Source: Schmidtea nova (taxonomy: Eukaryota). Taken from it: a DNA stretch of 64,000 nt. The notes under the pieces are model-generated. The model was not told the DNA's origin. It did no database searches and saw only the letters and a program-made list of their open reading frames with translations. A program made the translations under genes and the position numbers. The DNA is taken from NCBI GenBank assembly GCA_044892505.1, contig CM097882.1:209870001-209934000 (forward strand). Direction: 5' to 3'. Shown piece by piece: positions 34,526 through 59,002 of the stretch (positions are counted from its first letter, which is position 1; every line of letters begins with the position of its first letter).

Positions 34526-34579
34526 ATCGCGCTTACCCGACAAATCTATCACTCTAACATAATTCTTGTCTTCAGCCAC

Positions 34580-35215
34580 ATGATAAAGACCGAAGGATAC
34601 CAAACGGAGCTGATCGACTCACGACATATGAAAGTGGAGGATTATGTCATCCGGAGAAAACGACGTACCCGTTCCATCATCCGGCCAAAGAGGAACCCCA
34701 CCATCGAGGGAGAAATGGAAGCCCCCCGCCGAATTAGTGCAATTGCACGTCGACACTTATGCCGATGGATAAGACATCATACGAGTGCAGCCGCCGATAT
34801 TCCGGCTTGTGCCTTCACCATACAACTGCGATGGGAGGGAGACACCGATTGGACCTCCACCACGGATCCTGCCGAGCCAAGGACCGATAGATGGTTCTAT
34901 CAATTCCTCGACGAACAGAAACGACCCCGTTGGATATTGAGTAATGAGATGATGACGGGAAGGGCTCTATATCAATTAGGGTACATGCTGCTAGACAGGC
35001 CTCGGTGTCGCTACACTGAGGAAGTCTTCGCCTACTCCAACGCGCCAGGAAGCGTGTCTTTAGCGCAACACCCCGAGGCCAAGGAGCTTCGCCTCTGGGA
35101 GGTGTTTATCTACAAAGATAAGCTGAGTTGGAACCCAGCCCCAGAAATGTATTGGGAGAATGGAATTCGTCGCGACGAGCATCCTGCCGATCAGGAATTG
35201 AGAGCATCCAGTTGA
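34580..35215 (+). CDS. LTR ORF1, 211 aa, unknown function
   Basis: Intact in both LTRs; probable homolog in LTR of element A. Confidence 0.75.
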   Translation: MIKTEGYQTELIDSRHMKVEDYVIRRKRRTRSIIRPKRNPTIEGEMEAPRRISAIARRHLCRWIRHHTSAAADIPACAFTIQLRWEGDTDWTSTTDPAEPRTDRWFYQFLDEQKRPRWILSNEMMTGRALYQLGYMLLDRPRCRYTEEVFAYSNAPGSVSLAQHPEAKELRLWEVFIYKDKLSWNPAPEMYWENGIRRDEHPADQELRASS

Positions 35216-35403
35216 TCGACACCACCCGAGAAAGAATGATTGTCATAGATATAAAAATATATGTATTTGTGTGAGAACGGTCTTGTTTTGTTTTCGAGTG
35301 TATGAGAATAGCATGATGATAAGGTGGAGTTGTTTCATAACGACAGGATGACCGAAAGATCAGACACATAACATATACTACCATTAATGATATATTTACA
35401 GAC

Positions 35404-35967
35404 ATGACTGAAACCAAGGACAGAGATTTCAAGCAAGAGGCGCGAGAACATAAGGCGCGCTCACGAGTTTTGGAGAATCGGTTAAGGCAGCTGAATGAGG
35501 AGCATCAGCGGATTAAGACGACATGGTTTAACCCAGAGCGGGTTAAGTCCATCCTGCAAGCTAGATACAGGGCGGAACGAACAATCAACGAACAGGCGAG
35601 AGAGGTCGCAGCCCTGAAATTAGAGTTGGCCAATTACTTAAAGGTGTCGACCCGAGACTTCATCACCGAGCAGTTGCGTCCTGTGATCCGGGCAAGCACT
35701 TTTAATCGATGGGTAGACACGATAGTGGTGACTACGAGCACCCAAACGGAAAATGCATCGACCGTAACTACAGCTACTGCAGTGACAGCTACAACTCCTC
35801 AAGGATCGCAAAGAACAAAGAGAAGGAATCGCTTAGGAGCGAAAAAGCGGAGAGAGCGACGTGCATATGCGGATCGCCTAGGAATAGAAATAGACTTGCT
35901 CAGCGGTCTATCTGAACAAGAACTTCTGAATGTAATTAGACCATCGGTGTTATTAAATTGTAAATAA
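35404..35967 (+). CDS. LTR ORF2, 187 aa, coiled coil with Arg-rich motif
   Basis: Intact in both LTRs; homolog in element A; followed by an overlapping AATAAA at 35963. Confidence 0.78.
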   Translation: MTETKDRDFKQEAREHKARSRVLENRLRQLNEEHQRIKTTWFNPERVKSILQARYRAERTINEQAREVAALKLELANYLKVSTRDFITEQLRPVIRASTFNRWVDTIVVTTSTQTENASTVTTATAVTATTPQGSQRTKRRNRLGAKKRRERRAYADRLGIEIDLLSGLSEQELLNVIRPSVLLNCK

Positions 35968-35968
35968 A
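35963..35968 (+). terminator. Candidate poly(A) signal in the LTR (copy near 62124)
   Basis: AATAAA overlapping the ORF2 stop, followed by a GT-rich tract (TTGTCTTGTTTGTTTGTGG). Confidence 0.5.
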
Positions 35969-36359
35969 TGTATTGTAAACGAATGATTTGACTTGTCTTG
36001 TTTGTTTGTGGAATGTTTGAGGATTGAATGTAACTAAAACCCGGATTCATTTAAACTGCAGATATCTAAAAAGTAAATTACCCTATGACAAAAGGAAAGA
36101 GCATAAGTGGGACCGAAAGAAATCCACAAACACCTTCTATCGGTAGTGGTGGACCCGTGAATAAACAAGGGAATAGTAGCCGCAAGGTTGCTCACCTGCC
36201 TTGTCATTTCACAACGTTGACACAGCACCAACATGATGAGTAGTTAGGGATACATCATGGGTGTCAGCGGGGGAATGTTTTTATGTTGGCGAGATCACCC
36301 TAACATATAAAATCACAATGATCTCAGTTGTCAATCTAACCAACACACCAGCATAAATT

Positions 36360-36377
36360 TGGGGGCTCAGCCGGGAT
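36360..36377 (+). promoter_or_regulatory. Primer-binding site of element B (tRNA-Pro type)
   Basis: TGGGGGCTCAGCCGGGAT, 6 nt after the LTR end. Confidence 0.88.
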
Positions 36378-37373: not shown

Positions 37374-38084
37374 TAGAAATAAAGTTTTGAACAAGTGCAG
37401 TTGTTGTTGAAATTATGAGGGTTTAAAAATGATTTGGTAAAAATGACCTAAGTAATTATGAGCTACTTACGAGTAGTCCGTTAAGCACCTATTGGGGGGA
37501 ACCAACTGATCAACTCACCCGAGATGTGTAGAAAGGGATCCAATCGCGGATATTGGAAAGCTCTTGTGATGTGACTGATCACCACATCGTGCATCAGTGG
37601 ACCAATGCGATCTTTTTATATATTTTGGTTGGGGTGAAAGGTAGGGACAACTTAATGAGGTGTAGGCGCGCGCAGAAAAAAACTATAAAAATAGGAGGAT
37701 AAACTGATCAGTAAAGAGAGAGAGAAAGCAATGAAATGAGTAAGATGAATAGCGAAACGTGGTATATGATGAAAGGCACGTAATCAGCTCGCATAAGGTA
37801 AAATCAAGTAGAAAGGTTGACGAATCGATAATAGAATAAAGGGGTATAACAGATGAACCGAGTAAATGGTAAACTCGAGGTTAAAGGAAATCCTTGAAAG
37901 AAAGGAAATGATAAAAGGGGTCCTGGAGAGAAAGGATTTGCCCATAGTTCTTGAAAGATAGAACTTAACAAAACGCGACAATAGATTCTCCGAAGAAGCA
38001 TAAGTGACCAATGAGAGGAACATCTCGAAGCAACACATGCAACCACTGAGAGATGATATTTCGAGTTTTCGTTCGTGAGCATAG

Positions 38085-39422: not shown

Positions 39423-40298
39423 CCAACGAGAGATGTCAGTGGAATCAAAGGTGAGTAGAGATGAGAATTGAAATGAAGTAGTAAACGTAGTATGAATAGG
39501 AAATAAAGCGAATAGCCGAGAAACAGAGTAGTCGACAGATAAGGGGAAATTTGAACTCAGAGCCAGAGAAGCCTGAGAAAAGTAAAGGGGATAATAAGAG
39601 CGCTGAGCGACAAAGTAATTGGGGAACTGGGGAAAAGTAATTGGTGTATTTGATAAAGAATAGATAATTGATGCGACTGCATAGATAATTTAAATAGACT
39701 TAAAATCAAGGGAAATGGGAAAAATGGGGATCTTCATGAATTATGACTACACCCGTGAGAGGGACGAGAAACACGATAACGGGGACGTATCGTGTAAGTG
39801 ATTATTTGTTTTAAGGAAACAAATCAATCAAGCAATTCAAAGCAATCTAGCAGTCAGAGCAATCAAAGGAAACAAATCAAAGAAGAAGCAAAGCAAAAGC
39901 GGAGTAGAAAATCAGTTGAGAATATAAGAAGTTGAGGAATAGACAAAATTGAGGGACGAGAAACAAGATCAGGTATAATACCAATCTTAACGGAAGCAGA
40001 AAGAAAAGCAGCAAAAAGGACAAGAACAGGTAACAAGCCTAAGCAACAAAAGAACAAACAAGTAGAGATCAGCGATAATTCGAGTAATAAAGAGAACCAA
40101 GAAGAAACCCCAGAAGATCTAGAAGTACAAAACGAAGTAGAGACGATAGACAGTGAACTAGTCAGGGAAAACAGAACAAGAAGCGAATCAAGAGATAACG
40201 AAACAGAGAGTAGTGAAGAAGAAGAGTCGAATTCAGAAACAAGTGGTGAACTAGAAGCAAAGAAAACTAGTACAGTATTCCAAGACAGTGGAATCGGG

Positions 40299-41170
40299 AT
40301 GAGTGAACACAGAGAGGATCTGAGAGAAAAATTCAAGGGCGAACCATTCAATGGAGACGCCAGTAGATTGGACACGTTTCTAAAGGAATTTGGCATATTC
40401 GTGGATATATGCGGATGGAGTGCAGAAACGTTGGCAAATCGAATCCCGCTATACTTGAAAGATAGCGCATTGGATCTGTATATTGAAAAGAGATCTGGAA
40501 GTAGTCCACCCAGAACGTGGGAAGCAATCAAGGAGTTCTTCCAACAGACGTTTGGGATAAATAAAGTATTAAACGAAGCGTTCGATGAGTTTTCTGCAAG
40601 AAAACAAAGGAGAAACGAGTCAAATGCGGTGTACGCAAGCGAATTAAGAAAGTTGGCGAAACTGGCATTCAACAGAGGAAGCCCAGTAGATGAAGAATTG
40701 ATGACAGCGTTATTCGTACGAGGTCTCAGGAGACCTGACATCAGAGCACAAGTGGGATGCAAAGGATGTAAAACAGTAGATGAAGCGTTGGAAGCAGCCA
40801 ACCTATTCGAATTGCATATGGCAATGAATGACATGAGAATTACGGCGGTAATGGGAAAAATGACAGAAGATGAAGAACAAGGAAAAAGAAACATGAATCA
40901 AAGTATTCCCCATTCGCAGAGATTGTTCAAAGAACCGCCAGCGAGGAAAAATAATGGATATATCACAGTAAACCCGAATGGAGGAAACAGTTACAATGAC
41001 AGGCAGAATAGGCAATGTCAGACGTGTGGAAAAAACGGACATTGGCAACAAGATTGTTTTCAGAATGTAGCCTGCAAACTGTGTGGACAAAAAGGTCACT
41101 CAGAAAATCGATGTTATGGGAAAACGTGTTACACATGTGGAAAAACCGGACACATGTCAAGAGACTGTAA
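40299..41170 (+). other. gag: Gag: capsid-like domain and three CCHC zinc knuckles
   Basis: FNGDASRLDTFLKEF...W..IKEFF...RKQRRNES..YASEL; CQTCGKNGHWQQDC, CKLCGQKGHSENRC, CYTCGKTGHMSRDC. Confidence 0.92.
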
Positions 41171-44100
41171 TCAACAGAGAAGTTGGTCAAACAGTGGAAA
41201 TAGACCGAATTACGGGAATCGACCAAGCTATGGGAATCAGGGTCAGCAACGGAACAACCCAAACAGCAGTGCAAATGAAGTCAGTATGAAAGAAGCCAAG
41301 TTGAGACAGGAGGTATCCAGATTACACGAGATAATCGAAAGCATGGCAAAAGGAAGCCAACAAGCTGCTCAACCAAAGATAAACATGATCCAGTTAATAG
41401 AAGCTGAGGCTGAAAGAGAAAATAGAGAAAGCCAACAGAAACATAATCAAGAATGGGCTAGAATACGACGAGAAGAAGAACAAGTCAGACAACAACGACT
41501 ACAACAGTTAAAAAAGGGAAATCCAAGGATCAACATGATGCGAGCAAGGATGGAAAAGAAGCAGCAGGATGAGTCAGACGAGTTAGAAGTTAAAGAGAAA
41601 AGAAACGAAGAGCAGAAACAAGAAGAAGTGAATCAGGAAGTAGAAGTCGCAGAGCAGAATCAAAAAGCTGAAGAAGTAGAAAAAGAAACGAATCAAGAAG
41701 CGGAAGTAAGAATCAAACAAAGAGGAATGTTGGTGATCATGCCGAATGATCACGTATGGCGATTCAAATATGATGTAAAAGAAGAAGTAGGAAGACTGTT
41801 CAATAAAGTAAATGAGATGATTCCGGGAGTAACGAAACTACCCAGAGAAGCATTCCTACAAACAGAGGATTTACCGGAAGTGAAGTTAAAGATGACTGAT
41901 ATATGGGAAGATATGGGAGTAACGGAGACAAAAATAAACGTGATGATCATCAGAGAGGTGGAACCGGAGAAAATCCCACCACCAGTGAAACATCAAACTC
42001 GGATCAGTCGAATATTCAAAGGAAAAATAAGACGAAGACGGTTGGAAGAAATAGATGAGTTGGAGAAAAGAATGGGAAAAGCTGAAGTAACAGGAAACGA
42101 GAATGAACTAATACAAGAAGTTAGCAAAAACGAAGCGAGACCAACCGCACATATTGGGATGCTGAGACACCCAAGACAAGAGTTGTCAGATGAAGAAGAC
42201 AACAGCGAAGTTAGCAGTCTGGCAGGAGACATGCTAAAGGAACCGGAAAACGAGGACAAAAAGATGGAAGTAGTTGAGACGATGGAAACAGTGTCAGTAA
42301 CGGAAGACGAAATTCAGAAGCTGATGGATAACGCGTTGGAAGTAATCCATAACGAGGAGTTTATCGACAAGAAACGATACCGAAAGTTTATACGAGCAGT
42401 ATGGCAAATGAAGTACAAAGAGTGGTTACAAGAAAGAGAAGTGAGAGTAATACAAGAGTTCATAGAGAAGTTATTGAAAGAACCACTCAACGAATACGTA
42501 ATACAAATATGGATAAACGAGTGTTCACCGAGAATCTGGATAAGGAACCCAATGACAGACGGAATTTACCGATGGGTTGAGGACAGATTGGGAAGCTCGT
42601 ACAAAGACAAATTCATATACTCAGAAAACGGATTGGTGAGAAAAGGAACGCATATGATAGACACGGGCATCTGGCCAGGAGAAATAACAACGTTATCAAT
42701 ACGCAACACCAAAAAGGAAGAGAACTTACAAGGAATCGTCAAAGAAGCGAATACGTGTTATGAGATGAGAATAAAACCTCAGTTGCTAGAGGCAAAGGAA
42801 AGAATCTTGGCGGAGAATTTGAATACGATAATAGAACAGATCATCCAACAAATCAAGAAACATCGAAAGGAATTGACGAAAAGCGAGTATGAGAATTTGA
42901 AACAGTGTATCGAGAACATACGAGATACGAGTCAAACGAGACATTCAAATTTCAAGACGGACAAGCTAATTGCAAAGATGGGAAAAGAAATGTTTAAACG
43001 AGGTGAGGTATCAGATCTGAAGATTACCGTGAGATTACCAAACGAAGAGACAAAACAAATTGAGGTAATACCAGATAGTAAAGTGGGAGAAATAGTAGAT
43101 GTCATCAATGAGACGATATTACAACGAGAACGAGAAGACGAATTCGAGGATTACATTGCGATAAAATACAAAGAACACCTACTAAACGAACGTGACGAAA
43201 GACGAGCGTATAAAATCGGCATATGGGATAATTATCAGACAATACATGTCATCAGAATGGATGATGTGCAAAGAGCAACACCAAAAGATGAGGAAAGGAG
43301 AAAGAAACGACAAGAGGACGTTATGCGTAAGCTGAGGCAGATAGTAGAAATCTATCGGAACTGGCAGATGAAGCCAGAATTGGAGACAATATTGGGAGAA
43401 TTGGATCTTAACAGACGACGAGTGACGCCAGTAGGGAAACAATGGGATAGTAAAGAGAAATGTTGGAAAGTGAAAAGAGGCGTGTATGAAGAAGATCCGG
43501 AAGTGGAAGACAGATACGAACCGAATACGAAACGGATATGTATGGTAACAAGGAGGTTATTACCAACGGACTTAGACGGACCAGAAACTGCAGTAATATG
43601 GGCAGAATTGGAGAAACAGAAAACGAGTGAATTGATCGAGCTGTTGAGAGGAAATACTCGGGGGAAAAGACAAACAATAAAAGGCTTAGCACAATTCATA
43701 ATCTCAAATGGAGAAGACATAACGAACTTGAGAAAAGTAGCTAAAGCGATAGCAGAATACAAGAGAGTTAATGAGTGGTGTCCAGAGCAACTAGACGATG
43801 TAATAAAAAAGTGGAGAAACAGAGAATTCGCGGAGGAAATGCCACAGAAAATACATTTGAGGATAATGTATCCGAATCAAAGAAAAGAAGAGTTTTGGGT
43901 GATGCTAACAGAGAAAGTGAAAAGTATTAAAGAGAAACTGATGTATGAACTACCATTCCACCTGCAACATCAAGGACGATCGTTGGATAATAGTTTGGAA
44001 ATCTGGCTGACACCAGTACAATTGGACCTAATGAACACGCTAACAGTGGCACAAATAGTGGGTCAACCACTGAAGTTTAAAGAGGAAAAGAAACCGAAAG

Positions 44101-47100: not shown

Positions 47101-50100
47101 GACACTCAAAAGACATACATCGAAAAAAGAGGTTATTGAAGATACTTGCAAAAATGAAAGGAACAAACGAAGATGTCGGAAGGAAATTCAAAAAGATAAT
47201 GCAAGACGAGCAAGCAAGGCGACAACTAAAGAAAGAAAGGAAAGGATTATGGGAAAGAGTGAGAGGATATCGAACGCAGGATGACTCAAGCAATGATGAC
47301 GACGATGACGATCAAGGAGGACAAGCGAATATAAACCAGATTCCACAGTATAACGAAAAGAGTGCAGTTGAGAATTGGAGATACAGTGCTCCACCCCAGT
47401 CAATGTATAACGAACCGATATACAAAGCGAAGCCGAATATGATGCAGATGATGCCGATGACAAGTATATACCCGATAATTCCAGAAGGATGTAAAGTAAA
47501 ACGATGCAGAAGTGTAGACCCGTTGGAAGACACGCACACGATAGCGGTTATGTCCACAAATATGGGACCGATTTTAACAACAACCGTAGAAATAAACGGA
47601 AGAGAAATTGAAGCTATGATCGATACAGGCGCGAATATTTCGGCAATCGACATCAATTATATACCAGAGAAAAACCAAGGAGAAATAGAGAAGACGAATG
47701 TTCATGTAATCGCGTGCAGTCAAGAGACAGTAGAAGTAGCCGGAAGATGGTTTGTAAAAATTAAGCATCGAGGTGCAGAAATCAACACGTACATCGCTGT
47801 AATACCATCGCTGAGTGTACCATGTATTATTGGAACTGACCTGATGCCAGACCTGTTCAAGGAAATCGTAATTGATCTAGGAGCAATGAAGCTAAAAGAT
47901 AGAACAGGAAAAATCTGCAGAATGAAAGTTAAAGTGGCAAGTACAGAACAAATAGTAGTGCCAGCGAGACACGAAATGATGTGCTATGTCAAGATCGATT
48001 CAACAATAAAGGGAGATATGATATTCGAACCAAGTAAGAAGTTCGAAGCGAAGAAAGAATTACCAATGGCCAGAGAATTGGTTACGATAAACCAAGAAGG
48101 TGAGATACTGATTAATCTGGTGAACTTCGACGAGGAGGACAAGATAATATACGAGAATGAGAATTTGGGTAAATTGACACCCATGTCCGAAATCGAGATA
48201 CCAGACAAGAACGTGAAAAGCAAAAGCGAATTACCATGGAAAATCGACAGTGTGTTGTTAGACGAACGACAAAAAGAACAGTTACAGAAACTGTTGATGG
48301 AATATCAAGACATATTCGCAGCATCAGATCTGGATTTAGGAACATGTGACGTAACATTACATACGATACCGTTGACAGACGAAACGCCAATCGCATTAAG
48401 ACCATATAAATTGGCAGAAGCTCAAAAAGCAGTGGCAGAAGAAGAGGTACAAAAGATGTTAGATGCAGAGGTCATCGAACCTAGTTGCTCACCCTGGCAA
48501 TTCCCAGTGGTGATGGTGAAAAAGAAGGATGGAACTCAGAGATTCTATATCGATTACAGACGATTGAACGCAGTTACGAAAAGAGATACGTACCCACTGC
48601 CAGATATAAACGAAATGTTGTTGACGTTACAAGGAGCAGCTTATTTCACGTCACTGGATTTAAAAAGTGGATATTGGCAGATCAAAATGAAAGACGAGGA
48701 TAAAGAGAAGACAGCATTTACAATCGGACGAGATCTGTACCAATTCAAGAAAATGCCGTTTGGGTTAACAAACGCGCCAGCATCATTCCAGAGATGCATG
48801 AATTTCGTAACACATGGCATAAAACAATGCATGGTGTATATTGACGATCTATTGATCTACTCCGCAACATTTGAAGATCACTTGCAAGACATCAGAAATG
48901 TGTTCGTGAAATTGAGACAGTGGAAACTGAAATTAAAGCCGTCAAAGTGCGATTGGGCAAAAGAGAAAGTGACATTCTTAGGTCACATTGTATCAGCAAA
49001 AGGAAAAGAACCAGATCCAAGGAATATCGAAAAAGTTAAAGAATGTCCACCACCAAAGACAGTGACTCAAATACAAGAATTTTTGGGATTGTGTGGATAT
49101 TATCGAAAATTTATCAAGGACTATGCAGGACTCTCAAAACCAATGCAAGAATTGGTAAGACAAGATGTATCGTTCGTATGGGGAGGAGAACAACAAGCAG
49201 CATTTGAAACACTACGGGACAAGCTGATTACAGCACCAATATTGGTCCATCCAGATTTTAAGAAGCCATTTTTGTTGGCAACAGATGCAAGTGGATACGC
49301 AGCAGGAGCAGTACTAGGCCAATTTGATGAGGAAGGCAAGGAAAGAGTAATTGGATATTACAGTCGAACATTCAGAAAGCATGAAAAGAATTACTCAGTC
49401 ACGGAAAGAGAAGCCTATGCGATAATATTGGCAATCAAGCATTTCAAGTACCTATTGTGGGGTCATGAAATATATATCACGACGGATCATCAACCATTGG
49501 TATGGTTAGGTCAACATAAAGAATCATCAAGTAGATTGATGCGTTGGGCGATGCAGTTGCAGGAATACTCGCCATTCATAAAGTTTAAAGCAGGAAAAGC
49601 AAATGCGAACGCGGATTGCATGTCAAGGTTTACATTCCCAGAATTGGTGAACCTAAATGCTCTAAAAATATGTGCATTAATAGCGGAGGATTTGGATTTC
49701 AGCGAATTAAGGAAAGATCAACTCGAAGATGAGGAGTTGGGATTGATCAGCAAGTATTTGAAAGAAAGGGAAATAGAAATATTCGGCAAAAACCAAGTGT
49801 TGCGCGAACATATGCAAAAATACCAACATAGATACGTGATGGAAAAAGGATGGTTATTGATACAAGATGGAGAACGAAGATTGATGTGCTTACCTGCGAA
49901 TAGACGAAAGGAAATCATGACTCAATATCATGACGGAAAATTAGGCGGACATATGTCAGCAAAAAAGACAATCGGGAGATTGAGACAAAAGTATTTTTGG
50001 CCAACCATGGAAGATGAAGTGAAAGAATGGATAAAGAACTGCTTAACCTGTGCGACAAGAAAGAACGTCGGAACGAAGTGGAAAACACCACTAAAACCAA

Positions 50101-53100
50101 TGCCAATACCTGCAGAACCTATGGCAACGATAGCAATGGATGTAGTTGGACCATTGCCAGAAAGTTTAAAAGGAAATCAATATATATTAATAGTCACGGA
50201 CTATCTAACAAAGTTCCCAGAAGCATTCGCAATACCGGATCAAAAAGCGAAAACAGTCGCGAGAATATTGGTGGAAGAAATATGCTGCAGATATGGAACA
50301 CCAAAGAAAATCCTAACGGATCAAGGAACGAATTTCATGAGTGAAATATTGGACGAAGTTACGAATTACTTCAGAATTGCGAAATTACGAACATCCCCAT
50401 ACCATCCACAAACGAACGGTCAAACAGAAAGATTCAATGGAACATTGATACGCATGTTGTCAAATTATGTCAGTAAACATCAAACTGACTGGGATGAGTA
50501 TATAAACCTGTGTTTAATGGCATATAGAATGTCAATACATGCGGCAACAAAGCTAAGTCCATTTCAACTGATGTACGGAAGAGATTGCAACTTACCGATC
50601 GATTTAGAATACCAACCACCATTATCACAGTACATGGAGGTTGACGATTACGTTACAAAGTTCAAAGAAAGAATGCAAGAAATCTGGAAAACAGCGGAAC
50701 TGAACATCAAGTTCTATCAAGAGAGTTACAAGGATCTGCATGATCAGAAAAAGAATGTGAAAGCACATGATTTAAAAGTTGGAGATTGGGTGATAATCGA
50801 GACACCAGAGATAATACCCGGTACGGTCAAGAAACTCCAACGACCAGGCAAAGGGCCATATGAAATAACAACAGTAAACGAAAACAATGTGCGGGTACGA
50901 TTGGTGAACAATCCATTGGTAAGACCAATATACGTGAATGCATGTCGATGCAGGAAAATCCCAAAGACAGCAACTCTATCACCAGAAAAACGGGTAATTA
51001 CAAGATCACAGACGGCGAGAATCAGTATGTTACGAGTACAACAAAAGCCGCAAACAAGTCTAGAAGACAACCGAAGAGAAGCAATAGATAGCAAAGAACT
51101 GGCAAAGAGGACCAGAGAAATTATACCAGAATGGAAATGGTGGTTCGATTTCAATATATTGACAGAAGTTCGAAAGAATGTAATGGAGTATTCGAAGGAT
51201 AGAACAGCACATCCAATAACAAGAACGCTGCTAGAGGAAATCCCTCAAACATTGAACCTACAAGACAAAGACGGTAACACAGCGTTGCACAATGCAATCA
51301 AGCACAGTGGGAACGAAAAAGTGAAAGAGATCGTAGAGATGATACTCGAAGGTGGAGGAGAAATTGACAAAGTGAATTGGGAAGGAATCACTCCACTTAT
51401 GATGATGACAATTCACGGAAGAAACGATGAGATAGTCAAGCTATTCGGAAACACCAGATCAAATTGGATGACAAAGGATAAAGAAGGACGAACATTCTTA
51501 AATCATGCAATTGATAGAGCGAATCACCGAATACTAAAGTATATCACGGAAAACGCCACGTGGGAAATCGATGAACTAACTAGAGGATCGATCATGAAAC
51601 AAGCAATCGGAGTAAGAAACAGTAAAACCTGGAGAATACTGCTAAAGTGGAAACGACCAGAAGGAGATTCGTGGGTCATAGATTGTAATGAAGTGTTCAC
51701 AAGAGGAGAAAATGCGTTACTGAAACATCTACTAGAGGTAACATACGATCCAAAAACACTTGCAGTGTTAATAGCGAGAGATACGTTACGGGTTAGCGAA
51801 AACCCAAGAGAATTCAAGTTGGAAGACAGAAAGAAAGAACTATTCGGATTAATCAGGAAATGGTGTGATAAGCAATGGAATGCGCATATGAGCTTCGAAC
51901 ATTTTTATGACATTCAAAAGCAGCACAAAGAAATAAACAAGAGATATAAAGAGCTGATAGAAGCATTGAAATATGGACATTTCTTCAGACAAGCAGTGTA
52001 CCAAGACCAACGGAGGAAACAGATGCAAACACGAATAAGAAGCAAAGCCGTGTTGTTCAATGCAAAAGCCGATGATCAAGAGAGATTAGACGCAATCGTA
52101 GCAAAAGCACAGGAAAAACTATCGGAATTCAAGGAGAATAAAAACTCGTTGGAAATACTAGGAGCAATTACAGAGAAAGTGCACAGATACGCACAAGGAG
52201 ATTATAACGAAAGTGACATAGAAACGATCAAGAATCAAATGCCAGTGGCATTCCTTTTATCAAAGGATGGGAGATTACCGATACACTGGGCATTACGTCG
52301 AAAGAAAGAAAACGAAGTGCTGGAAATAACGAAAGCAATGATAAAGTGCGAAGCAGATATGAATATGGTTGATGATAACGGAGACACAATAATGATAATC
52401 GCAGCAAGAAAGAAGACGAAATTGAAAGTGCTACACGAGTTATACGAAGCAGGAGCCAAAATCGAAGGGAAAAATGGAAAGAAAAATTCCATCATAGATA
52501 TCGCAATACAGTGGAACAACTTCGAGATGATCAAGTTCATAAAGTCCATCAAGAGACAAGAGGACATAGAATACCTGGCAAATAACGTAAAGAAGTTCAG
52601 TCTGACAGTAATGATACACGACATAGAGAAAACGAGAGCATTACTAACATGGGTGAATCCGATCACCAAAGAACCAGCGCTCAAGATCAATGACCATATG
52701 GAACAGAATCAGAATTGGTGTATCAGAAGCGCGTTATTAAGACACAAAAAGCCAGAGATAGTAGAAGAATTCTTAAAGAGAAGAGATTTGAAGTTCACGA
52801 ACAATCCAAAGGAACCCGAACGAACGGGAAGATGGAAAGACTTGTTCAGAAAATATGTGAATGAATGGGCAAATGCCAAAGAAACGATCAAACAAAGTAG
52901 ACTAAAAGACATAGAACCATCCAAAGATATGGAAATACGGGAATTCGAGTCTAGCACACTCACAGTTCAAGCGTATGAAAGATTGATTGAAGAAATCAAT
53001 GTCGAGGACGACATTTTCAAAGGACCAGGGGGTGGTTACAGAGATTTCGACGACAAAAGCAACAACGAAGAGAACAACGAAGACAATGACAACAAAAGAA

Positions 53101-55175
53101 CGGAGGATAATGAAAAAGAAAGACAAGAAGAACCGAAGCCAACGAGAAACGACAAGAAAGGAGAAGCAGAAGAACGAGAAAACAGTGGAACAAAAGACGA
53201 ACATGCGAACTATGGAAAACGAACAGGAAGTCTACTTTTGAGACCAGAAATGTTGTGTATTGCGATATTGATAACAATCATCGGACAAGGAGAAGCCAAG
53301 AAACAATACGTCACGCTAGAGATAATCAGAGGAAATGAAGTATATGAAAGAATATGCTGGAAAGAAAACCTGAAGAAAAACGATACGCTGAAGTGTATAT
53401 TGTCAGATCTGAAGCGAGACGTCATCCAAATCAAAGGATTGGAGAAAGAAAAATCATACATAATATGCGCAATAAAGCAGAGAGGAGAACCAAAAGCACC
53501 TCAAGTAACTGCATGTCAATTATATAAAGCAACAGAAGCGCTGAAAATACAGAAATGGATTGGAAAAAGAAGCGAAGAGACAACGAGAAGAACAGAAGTG
53601 GAACCAGAGAAAGGGAAGAATCAAACCGAAACAGAAGAAGGAATCGGAAACCAAACAGAGAAAGAAAGAATAACCAAAAATCCAGCGGGAAAATTAACAT
53701 TCCAACCAGAATTGATATGTGTAGCATTAATATTAATCCTCATTAAGAGAATCATGGAGGACATAGATATCAGCGTGATGACGTTAGTAAATATCCAAGA
53801 CCAACGAACAACGAACGGAAGATGTTGGGGACGAAACAATGAAGTAATTGGAATCAGCGAAACAAGAGAAAGCCGAGAAGTAGAGACAAATGAAGAAATC
53901 GAAATAACCAAAATACACACAGATAGAAAATGTGAACTATGTCTCATGGAAAAAGCAGCAAACGGAAACAGACCAGGAACAAGCGAGTGTAAAGTGTTCC
54001 AAGCAAAGGAGATAATTGAGTTCCCAAAAAGAAGGAAACAAGATCAAGAAACGATTACAAATAAAGTAGTAACTGTGGAGATAAAAAACATTGGTCGGAG
54101 AACAATTGGGATGTGTTGGAGAAAATACATCGGAGTAACGACCAGTCACGTACTACCGCAATGCAGAACGAGAGAACGAGGAATCCCGTTTCAATTAAAT
54201 GGATTCGAAGTCGGACAAGCATATGAAATTTGCGTAATCCGAAGAATAAGAGAAATAATACAAAGAAGCCTGGAATGTAAACTATACAAGACGCCAGAGC
54301 AAATTAACGGAACAAGAACGATCGAAATGGGAGGAAGTCGACAGAGGAAAAGAAAGTCAAGAAAAACCACGACAACCAACAGTCAAGGAGTTCAACAGGC
54401 AACAATAGAAAAGACGACAATAGAAAACGAACCGGAATCAACAACGTTGATAATATGGAAGATCCATAAAAAGGTCCTAGAAATCTGTTGGACGTTGATG
54501 CCAAACAGTATGGGAAAGTCCCCACGAAACTGTCAAAAGACATCAAATGACAAAAGGGAAACAATCGAGGTAGAAATGAGAAAGTTGAAAACAAACGCAG
54601 AATACGAAGTGTGTGCAATCGAAGAAGTAGATGCACAAGGAAACCCACAAGAAAGGTGCGAAACCTATTACACGCCAAGGAACATAACGATAAAGGGGAG
54701 AACCCGCAAGTTAGAATTCCGAGAATTGAGTCAGAAGAGAAAACAAAACGAGAAGGAGGAGACAATACCAAGTCGACAAGAAAAATGGGAACCAGAGAAA
54801 GTGATCGAAGAAGTCAGACGGAGACAACAACAATACGAACAATGGGAAGCAGAATGGAAAGGTCAATATGGCGTGATGATAAACCAAAGTGAGACTCCAA
54901 GAAGGAGCATTGGGAAAACAATAATGGGATTAATCAGCATGGGAGTATTCATAGCGTGTATTCCACTGATAACGATCATGATAGTATGTTGGAGATATGG
55001 CATGAGAAATAAGACCATAGCAGTAAAATGGCCGGACGTAAAAGTCACGAATTACAACATAAAACTACCAAAAGAAGTACGAGAAGAGCTGAAAAGACGA
55101 TCAAAACACGAAGAAATGTGGGTACAGATCGAGGACGAGGAACTGTACGAAGGAAAACCAGTGATAGTTGTATAG
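40299..55175 (+). CDS. 4,958-aa Gag-(UBL/Bcl-2-like)-Env-PR-RT-RH-IN-Ank-FN3-like-TM polyprotein
   Basis: Single uninterrupted ORF carrying all canonical retroelement motifs plus extra domains. Confidence 0.97.
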   Translation: MSEHREDLREKFKGEPFNGDASRLDTFLKEFGIFVDICGWSAETLANRIPLYLKDSALDLYIEKRSGSSPPRTWEAIKEFFQQTFGINKVLNEAFDEFSARKQRRNESNAVYASELRKLAKLAFNRGSPVDEELMTALFVRGLRRPDIRAQVGCKGCKTVDEALEAANLFELHMAMNDMRITAVMGKMTEDEEQGKRNMNQSIPHSQRLFKEPPARKNNGYITVNPNGGNSYNDRQNRQCQTCGKNGHWQQDCFQNVACKLCGQKGHSENRCYGKTCYTCGKTGHMSRDCNQQRSWSNSGNRPNYGNRPSYGNQGQQRNNPNSSANEVSMKEAKLRQEVSRLHEIIESMAKGSQQAAQPKINMIQLIEAEAERENRESQQKHNQEWARIRREEEQVRQQRLQQLKKGNPRINMMRARMEKKQQDESDELEVKEKRNEEQKQEEVNQEVEVAEQNQKAEEVEKETNQEAEVRIKQRGMLVIMPNDHVWRFKYDVKEEVGRLFNKVNEMIPGVTKLPREAFLQTEDLPEVKLKMTDIWEDMGVTETKINVMIIREVEPEKIPPPVKHQTRISRIFKGKIRRRRLEEIDELEKRMGKAEVTGNENELIQEVSKNEARPTAHIGMLRHPRQELSDEEDNSEVSSLAGDMLKEPENEDKKMEVVETMETVSVTEDEIQKLMDNALEVIHNEEFIDKKRYRKFIRAVWQMKYKEWLQEREVRVIQEFIEKLLKEPLNEYVIQIWINECSPRIWIRNPMTDGIYRWVEDRLGSSYKDKFIYSENGLVRKGTHMIDTGIWPGEITTLSIRNTKKEENLQGIVKEANTCYEMRIKPQLLEAKERILAENLNTIIEQIIQQIKKHRKELTKSEYENLKQCIENIRDTSQTRHSNFKTDKLIAKMGKEMFKRGEVSDLKITVRLPNEETKQIEVIPDSKVGEIVDVINETILQREREDEFEDYIAIKYKEHLLNERDERRAYKIGIWDNYQTIHVIRMDDVQRATPKDEERRKKRQEDVMRKLRQIVEIYRNWQMKPELETILGELDLNRRRVTPVGKQWDSKEKCWKVKRGVYEEDPEVEDRYEPNTKRICMVTRRLLPTDLDGPETAVIWAELEKQKTSELIELLRGNTRGKRQTIKGLAQFIISNGEDITNLRKVAKAIAEYKRVNEWCPEQLDDVIKKWRNREFAEEMPQKIHLRIMYPNQRKEEFWVMLTEKVKSIKEKLMYELPFHLQHQGRSLDNSLEIWLTPVQLDLMNTLTVAQIVGQPLKFKEEKKPKGSMSTPSPMKSTMTPGTSSGQARTTPIKTRERTPPEAYDVDEILTDSDEAIEELTKLTQKPTANIFDKIIEMPITSPAEIDDQGVEQEVVIEMVNDSEDEQEQPQFTQEMERWLEQRANEGRDVTEETGRATRFVETGTGMEKRPRGRPKIDPTTAIPKTREERRQEQWEICLKKLDKIAEIRGKEENQVCQGEEWLTKTIMDVLAIIDPELKNLWRINEPSTKAKMLHNAIAPIMPELIKAKTKSNHLDWQGTTRLIKRLLSGAETDSKYLVAISYTIYNLLTLSRGSPKSSPMGRHIKNTAMIIEKEIEPYILRKGGWEKFIKENQTKEGSNVMRKKLEGVLREMENRQTMQGNGRSTLNLNSIIMMMLVWLLSTEGVTTFEVFDCDQMKLGEKYSLRGTEQCKDATPVELKEIKKEQWYHVYQEAELIKTMVNECKVQKTRFAFYCGRGHYSAIVMPGTEREPIVLQGEDCEALFKHGEVTTRDKIKIRGKPGMMLQQTYYVAGRITGGEGYCQGETYPIFGVPATNLVVMDTYIVELKSYEAFFEPTTGEMKTLSMCKIDRSMCQTGMSTLVYKPKVNECQLQLLQGAKFDEIQGKTFQEEDDDDKARAKHLKEALENKRQLKPDHREKRIEMRTTPTVLITTNQDVGMRFIKGKATLKCSTTVYETNYPGIYVSKQEVPNAKPKIDTMDIKLHLYVNNKMDFLFHRGQASLQKVYYDLINNDCILNREILKTKLAVAITNPDSAMPLLPLREGHFGRVVGEAMYVYICEKTHASLAATTQLKPGQCTNELEIDYKGKVRYVQPVTRIINPPGFEPNPFNCSNAYGPLYQKPDGKWVMFPGRTEVLAPREFELMQLSKDRQFSDVDVSNNGIYSPKDLEAARQNILFPARREALLSNIVTITGGTDYREGPNYELLLSPAHFKKATENMMKAMWGRFLIFGQMMAGILGVILIIQIVRVIITQMLACFDIYKREKKVNWKMVVGFLPFLAKTMVLHGHSKDIHRKKRLLKILAKMKGTNEDVGRKFKKIMQDEQARRQLKKERKGLWERVRGYRTQDDSSNDDDDDDQGGQANINQIPQYNEKSAVENWRYSAPPQSMYNEPIYKAKPNMMQMMPMTSIYPIIPEGCKVKRCRSVDPLEDTHTIAVMSTNMGPILTTTVEINGREIEAMIDTGANISAIDINYIPEKNQGEIEKTNVHVIACSQETVEVAGRWFVKIKHRGAEINTYIAVIPSLSVPCIIGTDLMPDLFKEIVIDLGAMKLKDRTGKICRMKVKVASTEQIVVPARHEMMCYVKIDSTIKGDMIFEPSKKFEAKKELPMARELVTINQEGEILINLVNFDEEDKIIYENENLGKLTPMSEIEIPDKNVKSKSELPWKIDSVLLDERQKEQLQKLLMEYQDIFAASDLDLGTCDVTLHTIPLTDETPIALRPYKLAEAQKAVAEEEVQKMLDAEVIEPSCSPWQFPVVMVKKKDGTQRFYIDYRRLNAVTKRDTYPLPDINEMLLTLQGAAYFTSLDLKSGYWQIKMKDEDKEKTAFTIGRDLYQFKKMPFGLTNAPASFQRCMNFVTHGIKQCMVYIDDLLIYSATFEDHLQDIRNVFVKLRQWKLKLKPSKCDWAKEKVTFLGHIVSAKGKEPDPRNIEKVKECPPPKTVTQIQEFLGLCGYYRKFIKDYAGLSKPMQELVRQDVSFVWGGEQQAAFETLRDKLITAPILVHPDFKKPFLLATDASGYAAGAVLGQFDEEGKERVIGYYSRTFRKHEKNYSVTEREAYAIILAIKHFKYLLWGHEIYITTDHQPLVWLGQHKESSSRLMRWAMQLQEYSPFIKFKAGKANANADCMSRFTFPELVNLNALKICALIAEDLDFSELRKDQLEDEELGLISKYLKEREIEIFGKNQVLREHMQKYQHRYVMEKGWLLIQDGERRLMCLPANRRKEIMTQYHDGKLGGHMSAKKTIGRLRQKYFWPTMEDEVKEWIKNCLTCATRKNVGTKWKTPLKPMPIPAEPMATIAMDVVGPLPESLKGNQYILIVTDYLTKFPEAFAIPDQKAKTVARILVEEICCRYGTPKKILTDQGTNFMSEILDEVTNYFRIAKLRTSPYHPQTNGQTERFNGTLIRMLSNYVSKHQTDWDEYINLCLMAYRMSIHAATKLSPFQLMYGRDCNLPIDLEYQPPLSQYMEVDDYVTKFKERMQEIWKTAELNIKFYQESYKDLHDQKKNVKAHDLKVGDWVIIETPEIIPGTVKKLQRPGKGPYEITTVNENNVRVRLVNNPLVRPIYVNACRCRKIPKTATLSPEKRVITRSQTARISMLRVQQKPQTSLEDNRREAIDSKELAKRTREIIPEWKWWFDFNILTEVRKNVMEYSKDRTAHPITRTLLEEIPQTLNLQDKDGNTALHNAIKHSGNEKVKEIVEMILEGGGEIDKVNWEGITPLMMMTIHGRNDEIVKLFGNTRSNWMTKDKEGRTFLNHAIDRANHRILKYITENATWEIDELTRGSIMKQAIGVRNSKTWRILLKWKRPEGDSWVIDCNEVFTRGENALLKHLLEVTYDPKTLAVLIARDTLRVSENPREFKLEDRKKELFGLIRKWCDKQWNAHMSFEHFYDIQKQHKEINKRYKELIEALKYGHFFRQAVYQDQRRKQMQTRIRSKAVLFNAKADDQERLDAIVAKAQEKLSEFKENKNSLEILGAITEKVHRYAQGDYNESDIETIKNQMPVAFLLSKDGRLPIHWALRRKKENEVLEITKAMIKCEADMNMVDDNGDTIMIIAARKKTKLKVLHELYEAGAKIEGKNGKKNSIIDIAIQWNNFEMIKFIKSIKRQEDIEYLANNVKKFSLTVMIHDIEKTRALLTWVNPITKEPALKINDHMEQNQNWCIRSALLRHKKPEIVEEFLKRRDLKFTNNPKEPERTGRWKDLFRKYVNEWANAKETIKQSRLKDIEPSKDMEIREFESSTLTVQAYERLIEEINVEDDIFKGPGGGYRDFDDKSNNEENNEDNDNKRTEDNEKERQEEPKPTRNDKKGEAEERENSGTKDEHANYGKRTGSLLLRPEMLCIAILITIIGQGEAKKQYVTLEIIRGNEVYERICWKENLKKNDTLKCILSDLKRDVIQIKGLEKEKSYIICAIKQRGEPKAPQVTACQLYKATEALKIQKWIGKRSEETTRRTEVEPEKGKNQTETEEGIGNQTEKERITKNPAGKLTFQPELICVALILILIKRIMEDIDISVMTLVNIQDQRTTNGRCWGRNNEVIGISETRESREVETNEEIEITKIHTDRKCELCLMEKAANGNRPGTSECKVFQAKEIIEFPKRRKQDQETITNKVVTVEIKNIGRRTIGMCWRKYIGVTTSHVLPQCRTRERGIPFQLNGFEVGQAYEICVIRRIREIIQRSLECKLYKTPEQINGTRTIEMGGSRQRKRKSRKTTTTNSQGVQQATIEKTTIENEPESTTLIIWKIHKKVLEICWTLMPNSMGKSPRNCQKTSNDKRETIEVEMRKLKTNAEYEVCAIEEVDAQGNPQERCETYYTPRNITIKGRTRKLEFRELSQKRKQNEKEETIPSRQEKWEPEKVIEEVRRRQQQYEQWEAEWKGQYGVMINQSETPRRSIGKTIMGLISMGVFIACIPLITIMIVCWRYGMRNKTIAVKWPDVKVTNYNIKLPKEVREELKRRSKHEEMWVQIEDEELYEGKPVIVV
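41720..44055 (+). other. Region with up to four ubiquitin-like (beta-grasp) domains
   Basis: For example LKITVRLPNEETKQIEVIPDSKVGEIVDVI..IAIKYKEHLL..IGIWDNYQTIHVI and IHLRIMYPNQRKEEFWV..VKSIKEKL..FHLQHQGRSLDN; pattern match by eye. Confidence 0.55.
44590..45090 (+). other. Bcl-2-like domain
   Basis: BH1-like LDWQGTTRLI and BH2-like IEPYILRKGGWEKF, conserved in element A. Confidence 0.6.
45180..47100 (+). other. env: Env-like glycoprotein (chuvirus/herpes gB-type) with signal peptide, furin-like REKR site (45990-46001) and TM
   Basis: FEVFDC..YSL..C, FYCG..HYS, GE.MYVYIC, C.NEL...Y.G..RYVQPVTRII, GIYSPKDLEAARQNILFPARR match the chuvirus glycoprotein pattern as I recall it. Confidence 0.8.
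47553..47910 (+). other. Retropepsin-type aspartic protease
   Basis: VEINGREIEAMIDTGANISAI ... IIGTDL. Confidence 0.95.
47920..48185 (+). other. Degenerate dUTPase-fold-like spacer common in animal Gypsy pol
   Basis: IVVPARHEMMC..MAR.LV..I.INLVNF....IIYENENLG; catalytic motifs not evident. Confidence 0.4.
48309..49630 (+). other. pol: Reverse transcriptase and RNase H
   Basis: SPWQFPVVMVKKKDG, LDLKSGYWQI, MPFGLTNAPASFQ, YIDD, FLGH; LATDASGY, EREAYA, TDHQPL. Confidence 0.98.
49880..50960 (+). other. Integrase (HHCC, DDE core, GPY/F)
   Basis: YHDGKLGGH..CLTC; MDVVGP, TDQGTNF, GQTERFN; KKLQRPGKGPYEI. Confidence 0.97.
51240..52760 (+). other. Two ankyrin-repeat clusters fused after integrase
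   Basis: DKDGNTALHNAI, NWEGITPLMM, DKEGRTFLNHAI; KDGRLPIHWAL, DDNGDTIMIIAA, LYEAGAKI. Confidence 0.85.
53230..55000 (+). other. Hydrophobic signal-like segments, four FN3-like Cys modules and a C-terminal TM helix
   Basis: Repeated CW....C....L....Y.(I/V)C....C..Y.T; TM IMGLISMGVFIACIPLITIMIVCW (about 54918-54993). Confidence 0.55.
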
Positions 55176-55298
55176 AGGGTGGAATATGAGTGTAAATAAT
55201 AGTGTAAAAACCAATGCATAACCGTATACGTATGGGTATAAATATTATAAAACATAAAAACAGAAAAAAGAGAATGATGTATATAATCTAGAAAAACG

Positions 55299-55649
55299 AT
55301 GAATCAAGAAACCACAGAGATGTCAATGATGACAAGATGGAAAGTGCAATGTGACCTGCTAGCCAGAACAATAAACGAATTACAGAGCCAGTTGACGGCC
55401 AAAACGCAATTATTAACCGAAAGTTATAACTGTAATTTCGAAGCAATGAACAAAATCGAGATTCAACAACTACAGATAAACGAATTACAGAACGAGAATC
55501 GAACATTAAATGAAGTAAACAATTGGCAAGCAGAGGAAATTGACCGATTAACGAGACATGAAGAGGAAGAGATACCGGATAGTTGGACGAGCTGGATTGT
55601 AAATGAGATAGACGTGTATCCAGAGCCGGATTCAACTGAGGATGTATAG
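55299..55649 (+). CDS. 116-aa coiled-coil protein with acidic tail
   Basis: Intact ORF with the same strand and A-rich codon style as the polyprotein; YAG acceptor upstream. Confidence 0.65.
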   Translation: MNQETTEMSMMTRWKVQCDLLARTINELQSQLTAKTQLLTESYNCNFEAMNKIEIQQLQINELQNENRTLNEVNNWQAEEIDRLTRHEEEEIPDSWTSWIVNEIDVYPEPDSTEDV

Positions 55650-55741
55650 TGAATAAGCGGAAAATTGTGTAAATACGTGTAAATAAAGAACCAGAAAAAA
55701 AATCAAAAATATGGGGAAATTGATGTAAATATTGTTGTAGA

Positions 55742-57154: not shown

Positions 57155-57243
57155 TCAGAGTGAACGACCCTGTAAATAAAGTGTAAAAATTGACAACAAC
57201 AATAAACGTATAGCATAACTAGTGTAAATTTGTAAATTACAGA

Positions 57244-58404
57244 ATGGAAAACGCAAATGAACATGTAATCGAAGAGGAAACGAGAAGCGGGATGTCGAAC
57301 GAACGAGAAGCACTAGAAAGAGAAATCGAAAGGAGATGTAAAGTGGAAGTGGAACAAAGAACCAGAGAGTTACACGAAGCGATGACAAACAATTTCTACG
57401 AGAAACTAAAATGCGAAAGACGAATGGAGTTATATCAACTAGAACTCGAGGAAGTGACTAAAGAGATACTACAACTGACCACACAAATAGAGAAGCTAAA
57501 AGGAACGAATTCACGAAGTCGACAGAAGATAGAAGAGACCTATCAGTTGATGAGAAAACAAGCTGAACATTACAAAAATGTGATGAAAACGCGAAGAGAA
57601 GAGAGGGAGAAACAAGAGGAAAAGATGGAGGTAAAAATACTAGCAATCAAGGCTCAAGCGAGACATTGGAAGATGGAGTCGAAACGAGTGTATAAAGAAG
57701 CCAAAGAGATAATCAGAAGGACAGCACACAGCGAAGATTGGAAACTGTATCAAGAGATAGACGAATTGAAAGAGGAATTGGAACAGAGAAAACGACAAGA
57801 ACAGACAAACAAAGAATGGAGTCGAAAACGACAGCGATTTATTCGAGAACAGGCAAAGGAACTAAAGAAAACGCAATGGCAAATACAGATGATAAATGGA
57901 GAAATGCGAGGCATTAGACAGAAAGAGGAAGCGGAAAGACAAAAGTTGATCAGGGAAAAAGAAAGCCTGGAAAGAGATGTAAATGGTTATCAAGGGGTGG
58001 TGACCCAAAAGAAAATGGAGTTGAAAGCAGTGAAGGAAAGACATGCGGAATCAAACCGAGCTTACGAGGAAAACATAACGAATTTGACGAAAGAAAACGA
58101 GGAACTGAAACAGCAGATAATAACCCTGAAAGCAGAGAAAGAAACCATAGAAGTAGAAACCGAACCAACAGAAGTAGAAGCCCTGAAGAGAAAAGTGGAA
58201 GGGATGGAAAGACAAATCGAAACTCTGAACGAACAATCAGACTATATGGAGTATCTGTTAGATGAAGAGATACAAATCTCTCGAACGTATCAAGATGAAA
58301 TTGCAATGTGGAGAAGTAGAGTGGTGTGGTTACCGTTTATACCACCACCACCAATGGAGCTCCAAGATGAAGGGTTCCATGAACCAGAGGAGACGGATGT
58401 GTAA
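57244..58404 (+). CDS. 386-aa long coiled-coil protein ending in ETDV
   Basis: E/K/R/Q-rich heptad pattern; intact ORF. Confidence 0.75.
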   Translation: MENANEHVIEEETRSGMSNEREALEREIERRCKVEVEQRTRELHEAMTNNFYEKLKCERRMELYQLELEEVTKEILQLTTQIEKLKGTNSRSRQKIEETYQLMRKQAEHYKNVMKTRREEREKQEEKMEVKILAIKAQARHWKMESKRVYKEAKEIIRRTAHSEDWKLYQEIDELKEELEQRKRQEQTNKEWSRKRQRFIREQAKELKKTQWQIQMINGEMRGIRQKEEAERQKLIREKESLERDVNGYQGVVTQKKMELKAVKERHAESNRAYEENITNLTKENEELKQQIITLKAEKETIEVETEPTEVEALKRKVEGMERQIETLNEQSDYMEYLLDEEIQISRTYQDEIAMWRSRVVWLPFIPPPPMELQDEGFHEPEETDV

Positions 58405-58477
58405 AAAGAGGCGAAAAATCCGTGTGTAAAAATGTACAAATCGATGTAACCTGTATTAATCAGCAGAATAATCAGAA

Positions 58478-59002
58478 ATGAACTGGCTCAAAACCCTACC
58501 AATCCTAACGATTATGTTAACTGCAATAATCATGAACTATTCAACAACCGAAATCCAAAGAACCCTGTCAAACGAGATATCCCAAGAGATTGAAAAACAA
58601 CTAAACGAAGTCAGAGAAGACCTGAAACAATTAATCCGACAAATGCGAATCAGTCATGATCATCGCAAACCCTTACAAACCCTATTCAATCAAATCGAGA
58701 AGATCCGAGAAATCCATAAAACATTTCAAGATCAACTAAAGCCAATCAAAGGCCAAACCCAAATCGAATCTGAAATCCGAAACAGATGGATCATCGTTGG
58801 AATAGTCACAATGACAATATTGACAATCATCTTGATCATCGTGATCACGTATACCCTACATCGAATCAGAAGCCTCAAACAACAACAAACGATAATGTGT
58901 AGATGTGCCAAAAGAGAAGCAAAAACCCAACAAAGGATGAGAAGCCATCTACGACAAATTCAAGCCCGATACGAAATGCAGTCAACCAGTGAAAGGACCT
59001 GA
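58478..59002 (+). CDS. 174-aa membrane protein (N-terminal hydrophobic segment, coiled coil, TM, coiled coil)
   Basis: LPILTIMLTAIIM and WIIVGIVTMTILTIILIIVITYTL. Confidence 0.7.
   Translation: MNWLKTLPILTIMLTAIIMNYSTTEIQRTLSNEISQEIEKQLNEVREDLKQLIRQMRISHDHRKPLQTLFNQIEKIREIHKTFQDQLKPIKGQTQIESEIRNRWIIVGIVTMTILTIILIIVITYTLHRIRSLKQQQTIMCRCAKREAKTQQRMRSHLRQIQARYEMQSTSERT

Follow-up and report, generated by a model that had tools for sequence, protein, structure and literature searches.

How does a retrotransposon with eight separate genes, spread over almost 30 kb, express each of them? The question is raised by a 64,000-nt stretch of Schmidtea nova DNA (assembly GCA_044892505.1, contig CM097882.1, positions 209,870,001 to 209,934,000 of the forward strand), referred to here as the window, which contains two giant Ty3/Gypsy elements of the Burro type, A and B. 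Burro elements are abundant in planarian genomes, and the expression of their extra genes was left open in a review (PMC6431247; here and below, sources are cited for the passages drawn on). The family is already known; what would be new, judging from the sequence, is the expression layout of B, in which a single donor, two promoters and an AUU start can be mapped along with eight acceptors. A preliminary description of the window had noticed a YAG shortly before each accessory ATG and had offered two explanations, a polycistronic cassette resolved by host spliced-leader (SL) trans-splicing and alternative cis-splicing from one leader. Our tentative preference is for a long transcript cut into one-gene messages, probably by the cis-splicing of one leader to alternative last exons. 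Either outcome would be unusual: in one case a long terminal repeat (LTR) retrotransposon would have eight alternative last exons, in the other a retroelement would carry an operon that the SL resolves.

In the preferred scheme, transcripts from promoter P1 would carry a short non-coding leader that is cis-spliced onto any one of eight acceptors. The donor at 33555 would pair with distal acceptors up to 25 kb away, and the chosen acceptor would activate the next poly(A) site, so that each mRNA would likely end at the poly(A) signal behind its gene. Unspliced RNA would be the genome. The polyprotein mRNA, with the leader joined at 39815, would be scanned to an AUU and then to the gag AUG. As a splice-acceptor-like site precedes each of the eight genes and a poly(A)-like signal follows most of them, one-gene messages are likely. 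The open reading frames (ORFs) and sites concerned are the following.

33417..33451, plus strand: promoter P1, with CCAAT boxes and a TATA box, common to A and B
33475..33554, plus strand: predicted non-coding leader exon, its 5' end placed by TATA spacing
33555..33560, plus strand: predicted leader donor, AAG/GTAATT
34554..35215, plus strand: acceptor 1 (G at 34575) and LTR ORF1, 211 aa
35380..35967, plus strand: acceptor 2 (G at 35401) and LTR ORF2, 187 aa
36890..37373, plus strand: acceptor 3 (G at 36911) and RING-finger ORF, 152 aa (PF13920, E 2.9e-9)
39794..40298, plus strand: acceptor 4, an ATG-free stretch of 483 nt and a predicted AUU start at 39948
40299..55175, plus strand: polyprotein, 4,958 aa, with Pfam domains
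55176..55649, plus strand: gap 1, acceptor 5 (G at 55291) and ORF4, 116 aa
55650..57154, plus strand: gap 2, acceptor 6 (G at 55740) and TRAF-like ORF, 470 aa
57155..58404, plus strand: gap 3, acceptor 7 (G at 57242) and ORF6, 386 aa, coiled-coil-like
58405..59002, plus strand: gap 4, acceptor 8 (G at 58475; alternative 58463) and ORF7, 174 aa

Predicted acceptor sites before the eight genes

All ten YAG-ATG motifs quoted in the preliminary description were found where it had placed them, and a YAG lies 0-7 nt before 7/7 accessory ATGs of B. The same arrangement occurs at 140/639 other sense-strand ATGs of B, which gives a chance of 2.4e-5 for seven out of seven; a test in which the 60 nt before each start were shuffled puts this chance at 8e-6. 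Three of the quoted sites belong to A and correspond in position to three sites of B, which probably makes them dependent observations. Two of these, at 19321 and 17868, are not the first in-frame ATG (19339 and 17910, respectively), yet they match the B starts. The four-gene 3' cassette of A, which lies outside the window and thus out of sample, has TAG-A(2-3)-ATG at 4/4 ORFs. Copies of the A family keep the cassette TAG-ATG motif in 7/7, 7/7, 7/7 and 6/7 cases, the miss being at ORF7, and 30 B copies keep it in 30/30, 28/30, 30/30 and 29/30, with two misses at TRAF and one at ORF7. At ORF6 the motif was present in 85/85 genome matches to a pattern built on an exact 20-mer and not allowing T at -5. 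Before LTR ORF1 it was found in 13/13 LTR variants of B with spacers of 4-9 nt, one of them longer than 7, and among these variants the tract, the spacer and the N-terminus all differ. The motif also recurs in LTR variants whose flanks cannot be aligned and at 2/2 ORFs of a divergent A-type LTR. The spacers between AG and ATG obey no reading-frame rule.

The AGs were scored with a host splice model built from 52 introns with well-aligned flanks, which remained of 99 candidates in host myosin genes after 47 had been dropped. Among 2,493 AGs of B, the accessory sites rank 5 (LTR ORF1), 6 (LTR ORF2), 15 (RING), 18 (ORF4), 48 (TRAF), 14 (ORF6) and 124 (ORF7; 60 for the alternative at 58463), which places the seven in the top 0.16-5%. 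Acceptor 4 (G at 39815), before the polyprotein, ranks 2 and is common to A; the preliminary description had missed this eighth acceptor, as it had the location of two accessory ORFs within the LTR. Scores before the ORFs of B range from 2.5 to 7.0 bits against a host median of 6.2, and the seven accessory sites, at 2.5-5.7 bits, are therefore plausible but suboptimal acceptors; acceptor 8 (58475) is the weakest of the eight. The accessory AGs of A, the ORF7 site excepted, rank 10-108 of 2,242. One difference between the two LTRs of B, at 34557, hits a branch-like A before acceptor 1 in the 3' copy.

If the motif were a start-codon context or due to chance, the ORFs would be read from polycistronic RNA by reinitiation. 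The short gaps, the A-rich start contexts and the fact that no junction was seen fit this explanation. It is hard to reconcile with the probability by chance of about 1e-5, with pyrimidine tracts and branch-like motifs that persist across diverged LTR variants, and with an equally good acceptor 483 nt from any ATG, and it is considered very improbable. The AGs behave like 3' splice sites, as had been proposed, and we are rather confident that they serve as splice acceptors in some mode.

Possible routes of expression: leader splicing, operons and internal promoters

P1 lies about 400 nt into the LTR and was identified in 16/17 B 5' ends and 7/7 A-type LTRs. L113 gave no match, and 4/20 regions were dropped (one in the wrong place, two without a B 5' end, one without an LTR). 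In both A and B, P1 is followed by 63-123 ATG-free nt and then the donor; the region from TATA+36 to the donor contains no ATG in 16/16 B and 7/7 A-type LTRs. A(A/T)TAAA adjoins the B donor in 16/16 LTRs, and the AATAAA in which the leader ends may mark the end of R and be its poly(A) signal. One of the differences between the LTRs of B, at 33446, hits the TATA box of the 5' LTR. Under the host model, the donor at 33555 ranks 1 of 1,240 GTs in B and 1-4 in 16/16 B 5' ends. In each of the 12 aligned LTR variants this donor reaches or exceeds the host median, which no other donor does throughout; one LTR variant replaces the leader donor by another high-scoring donor. The predicted promoter, non-coding leader and major donor thus lie upstream of all ORFs, as a single leader demands. 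The donor is 22-25 kb from the 3' cassette. No donor at or above the host median is common to A and B between the primer-binding site (PBS) and gag or inside the cassette, as far as this can be judged by pairwise alignment of diverged non-coding DNA, which makes the search a weak test.

The gaps between the 3' genes, described earlier as 73-123 nt long with AATAAA-like signals, measure 123, 92, 89 and 73 nt, and A(A/T)TAAA follows the stop within 75 nt in 5/8 ORFs of B, as it does in 6/8 ORFs of A. When TATAAA is counted as well, the figure is 7/8 in each element; the A(A/T)TAAA background is 12-38% of B windows. TGTA occurs after stops at 35/kb (B) and 23/kb (A) compared with about 3/kb in the polyprotein, roughly a 7- to 10-fold difference. 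UGUA is a cleavage-factor motif. Since TGTA and A(A/T)TAAA follow stops even far from acceptors, they are read as 3'-end signals. A G-rich, GCGGAA-like motif also follows stops, at 55176-55185, 55656-55664 and 58408-58416 and in the A homologues.

Co-oriented genes less than about 300 nt apart, separated by a poly(A) signal and then an acceptor, are the hallmark of an SL-resolved operon, and five gaps of 73-188 nt in B show this arrangement. According to this alternative, the LTR gene pair and the 3' cassette would be operons resolved by host SL trans-splicing. Transcripts from P1, from P2 before LTR ORF1 or from a gap-1 promoter would be cleaved at the poly(A) signals and the SL joined at the next AG, at ORF2, TRAF, ORF6, ORF7 and possibly ORF4, and the leader donor would serve only the 5' acceptors. 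The distance from 3'-end signals to the acceptor, about 40-130 nt, fits such a mechanism, as does the gap from stop 1 to acceptor 2 in the LTR, which is nearly constant (184±6 nt, 172-194, SD 5.6, 16 LTRs) while the distance from the donor to acceptor 1 varies from 755 to 1,028 nt (SD 100). Only the genes that open a cluster (LTR ORF1, ORF4) are preceded by TATA boxes, and the lack of a donor common to A and B inside the cassette points the same way. A Schmidtea species has SL genes and trans-spliced transcripts (PMC10899757), and gaps in flatworm operons are near 100 nt (PMC12582326, PMC8629364). If operons were correct, a virus-like retroelement would depend on the SL machinery of its host for TRAF and other accessory proteins.

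Several observations do not fit operons. The RING and polyprotein acceptors lack operon spacing, following the stop before them at about 0.95 and 2.4 kb, the cassette gaps are A-rich rather than U-rich, and the gap-1 TATAAA can equally be read as the poly(A) signal of the polyprotein. Weak tests revealed no SL-bearing read and no genomic copy of an SL junction. The SL ends in AUG (PMC12582326); at most sites this AUG would be out of frame (B spacers of 2, 7, 1, 1 and 2), and no ORF relies on it. SL operons, a close rival of leader splicing, are possible, if somewhat doubtful.

At the polyprotein, 483-652 nt pass after acceptor 4 without an ATG in 17/17 B and 7/7 A copies, where 7-9 ATGs are expected, so that this stretch looks like a scanned 5' region. 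An SL AUG in front of it would be a strong start, in phase 0 in B and in phase 1 in most A copies. As the start of an N-terminal polyprotein extension it was ruled out by an in-frame stop or the wrong phase; in this test, one A copy has TAA replacing TAG. The polyprotein frame is open before its first ATG for 121-149 codons in B and 173-197 codons in A. The extension (39936-40298; in A about 15287-15877, minus strand) is coding sequence under selection, first basic and then acidic, and its ratio of nonsynonymous to synonymous polymorphism (pN/pS) is 0.28 and 0.35, compared with 0.07-0.08 for Gag. Near its beginning AAA-ATT-G is invariant in 24/24 copies and the next codon varies. Initiation at the AUU at 39948 is therefore likely, with leaky scanning to the Gag AUG, and would yield a longer, non-AUG-initiated form of Gag that annotation overlooks.

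A further alternative assigns each accessory gene its own internal promoter, the AG being secondary or the end of a short local intron in the 5' untranslated region. The clearest case concerns LTR ORF1.

34518..34553, plus strand: promoter P2, a TATA box and an initiator (Inr)-like motif directly before LTR ORF1

The TATA-like box of P2 lies 57-58 nt before the end of the AG in 13/13 B variants, with the Inr-like motif at +32/33 in 12/13, so that transcription likely also starts directly, about 29 nt before the ATG. LTR ORF1 of A has no TATA-like box at this distance. The preliminary description had named transcript starts at internal promoters as one finding that would overturn it. Such starts are likely for LTR ORF1 of B, which would have an extra direct, unspliced route from its own promoter; before ORF2, RING, TRAF, ORF6 and ORF7, inspection revealed no TATA+Inr module. 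Gap 1 has TGTA motifs and TATAAA boxes at 55237 and 55247, and a TATA-like string precedes ORF4 in 30/30 copies. The last 200 nt of the LTR (36150-36345) show strong conservation among the variants of B and, in part, with A; in B only they contain a further TATA-like box, possibly a third promoter or an RNA signal.

Internal promoters are known from Tor3b/4b, where they drive env (PMC4402516), and smaller relatives point in the same direction. A genome search with PF24664 gave 16-17 kb relatives rather than further Burro families. These env-bearing Gypsy families (L034-L053) are 15-17 kb long, with a polyprotein of ~3,360 aa, LTRs of ~860 bp and one 3' accessory ORF. In 4/4 scored copies, from which relative F1 was excluded, the accessory ORF is preceded by CCAAT (-270), TATA (-215 to -227), a donor (-122 to -124) and an acceptor, and another donor lies 99 nt before gag, ranking 2 and 4 in the two copies ranked. 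Gaps 1 and 2 are less variable than coding sequence (0.013 versus 0.024), and the gaps contain GTAAAT, which is frequent among host donors, at an intron-like distance. Yet the TGTAAA motifs occur after stops with or without an acceptor nearby and have low donor ranks (95-379), and five of the accessory genes lack the promoter module. A separate promoter for every accessory gene is considered unlikely.

Cis-splicing of one leader is favoured by the top-ranked, conserved donor, by a leader free of ATG in 23/23 LTRs and by RING and gag acceptors that are not operon-spaced. It is further favoured because upstream AUGs have been purged where an SL would add one and because env-bearing elements provide a precedent (PMC4402516). 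The donor before gag and the acceptor before the single 3' ORF of the smaller relatives were counted on the same side. The points that weigh against it are of two kinds. Some concern the sites themselves: the leader donor of A is average (5.3 bits, rank 75 of 769), the ORF7 acceptor of A scores poorly, and the host model covers 52 introns of one gene family only. Others fit another route better: the poly(A) signals behind almost every ORF and the gaps of 73-123 and 184±6 nt are needed by an operon and not by cis-splicing, TATA-like boxes precede the first gene of each tight cluster, the smaller relatives possess a complete internal promoter and a separate intron before the accessory gene, and in Schistosoma the SL is a competitor at cis acceptors, to a greater degree where a long intron precedes them (PMC5832876). 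Finally, no spliced junction was seen, and genomic searches for junctions were both negative and weak. The preliminary description is supported in part, by the acceptors and the 3'-end signals; the cis option gains in addition the conserved top donor, and the SL option retains its argument from spacing. A mixture of expression routes is likely.

The junction searches can be summarized briefly. Patterns with an altered acceptor gave 0 genomic matches, with no working positive control because the control copy differed inside the pattern. A probe joining the leader to ORF1 gave one match with two mismatches, compared with four control matches. Both splicing models predict few genomic junction copies, since spliced RNAs would be without the PBS. 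In two internally deleted copies the breakpoints lie within the polyprotein and not at splice sites; three other regions contain no deletion joint. Four contig sets of unknown kind from one study, covering 51000-63000, are evidence neither way on splicing: among the rows listed (15/19 joints, 24/1,095 loose ends) there was neither a GT..AG joint nor a loose end at an acceptor. A spike of contig depth at the LTR end was set aside, as places cannot be ranked by the depth of contigs and the genome contains 896 copies of the LTR-end motif compared with 85 of an internal motif.

The two elements and their surroundings

The elements and their terminal features are arranged as follows.

33044-62514, plus strand: element B, 29.5 kb, with 3,310-bp LTRs, PBS and target-site duplication
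33044..36353, plus strand: 5' LTR of B, 3,310 bp, TG...CA, with two ORFs inside
36360..36377, plus strand: PBS, downstream of the leader donor and identical in A
59205..62514, plus strand: 3' LTR of B, with second copies of both LTR ORFs
1..21297, minus strand: element A, a related Burro-type copy, ~77% identical in pol, with frameshifts

The LTRs of B differ at seven positions and are flanked by a 4-bp target-site duplication, CTGG; we take the PBS to be tRNA-Pro-like. Two of the accessory ORFs described earlier lie within the LTR and are therefore present twice in B. LTR ORF1 has no Pfam match, no homologue was obtained by protein or atlas search, and it fits no known family. Pfam matches in the polyprotein follow the order Gag knuckles, Env-like fusion glycoprotein, protease, reverse transcriptase, RNase H, integrase and ankyrins. 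The TRAF-like ORF carries MATH, RING and zf-TRAF domains, and the translation of ORF7 has two hydrophobic segments. The ORFs tested are under purifying selection, with pN/pS of 0.10 (ORF4), 0.14 (TRAF) and 0.19 (ORF6). Genome matches to TRAF comprise at least 90 of B type and at least 144 of A type.

The 3' cassette of A lies beyond an inserted DNA element. This insertion (L031/L032) splits A, is 14 kb long with inverted ends of ~690 bp and extends from ~300 to 14,670 bases left of the window start; its ORFs give it what we presume to be a Polinton/Maverick-like character. Between A and B, 24782-27770 and 30736-32800 are inverted, decayed copies (85-87% identical) of another element bearing a reverse transcriptase. 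Upstream of the polyprotein, B contains a 19-nt tandem array (38064-38633) and five to six spaced units with a short GCTG...CAGC inverted repeat (38929-39431), several of which have a high-scoring GT site behind them; A carries a 32-nt array and a single unit of similar kind. Among further copies (L102-L121), the two ends of the LTR are alike, while its middle is patched together from variants that are 77-92% identical. The short LTRs of L102, L103, L112 and L121 lack intact LTR ORFs and keep promoter and donor. L029 has lost gap 2, including the ORF4 stop and the TRAF acceptor, by a deletion that is not GT..AG. In L122 and L123, 10-13 kb of the polyprotein are deleted, and the leader and at least the cassette start are retained.

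Relation to known systems

Complex retroviruses and the major late unit of adenovirus join one leader to many weak acceptors, and adenovirus uses several poly(A) sites. Retroviruses have a single poly(A) site, and their donor lies behind the PBS; adenovirus is not a retroelement. From retroviruses B differs in its several poly(A) signals and in a donor located upstream of the PBS.

Burro/GYPSM1 elements of planarians are about 29.5 kb long, the largest over 30 kb, and occur in hundreds of copies (PMC6431247). B agrees in size, LTRs, PBS, target-site duplication and its single polyprotein of 4,958 aa (4,900-5,100 expected), as well as in the ~5,000-aa polyprotein format with Env between Gag and Pol, in ankyrin, TRAF and RING domains and in tandem repeats (PMC6431247). 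It departs from the described Burro in that TRAF forms a separate 3' ORF and two ORFs lie inside the LTR (PMC6431247). No BIR or BCL2 match was obtained in B with Pfam at E<=0.05; RING and TRAF are present as separate ORFs. One Burro accessory protein has been reported, in a second-hand citation, to protect stem cells (PMC13465017). Burro RNA rises when PIWI is knocked down (PMC8532177). The passages of the Burro review consulted describe no expression mechanism (PMC6431247), and no Burro transcript structure or SL-resolved retroelement operon was found in the PMC and bioRxiv literature within reach of the search; Grohme 2018 and Lee 2026, beyond that reach, may cover them.

Env-bearing elements, among them gypsy-type elements and Tor3a of Oikopleura, usually splice from the LTR (PMC4402516). 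B resembles Tor3a and gypsy env in the predicted LTR-driven leader joined to an acceptor before a 3' ORF, or, where an internal promoter is used, Tor3b/4b. Unlike Tor3a, which makes one product in this way, B has eight acceptors, most with a separate poly(A) signal, and a donor upstream of the PBS (PMC4402516). In S. mansoni, six transposon loci, themselves of unclear origin, bear an SL (PMC5832876). With the SL operons of flatworms and nematodes B shares the poly(A) signal, the gap near 100 nt and the acceptor close to the ATG (PMC12582326, PMC8629364, PMC5832876); those operons have been described for host genes, whereas B is a retroelement with a strong cis donor upstream.

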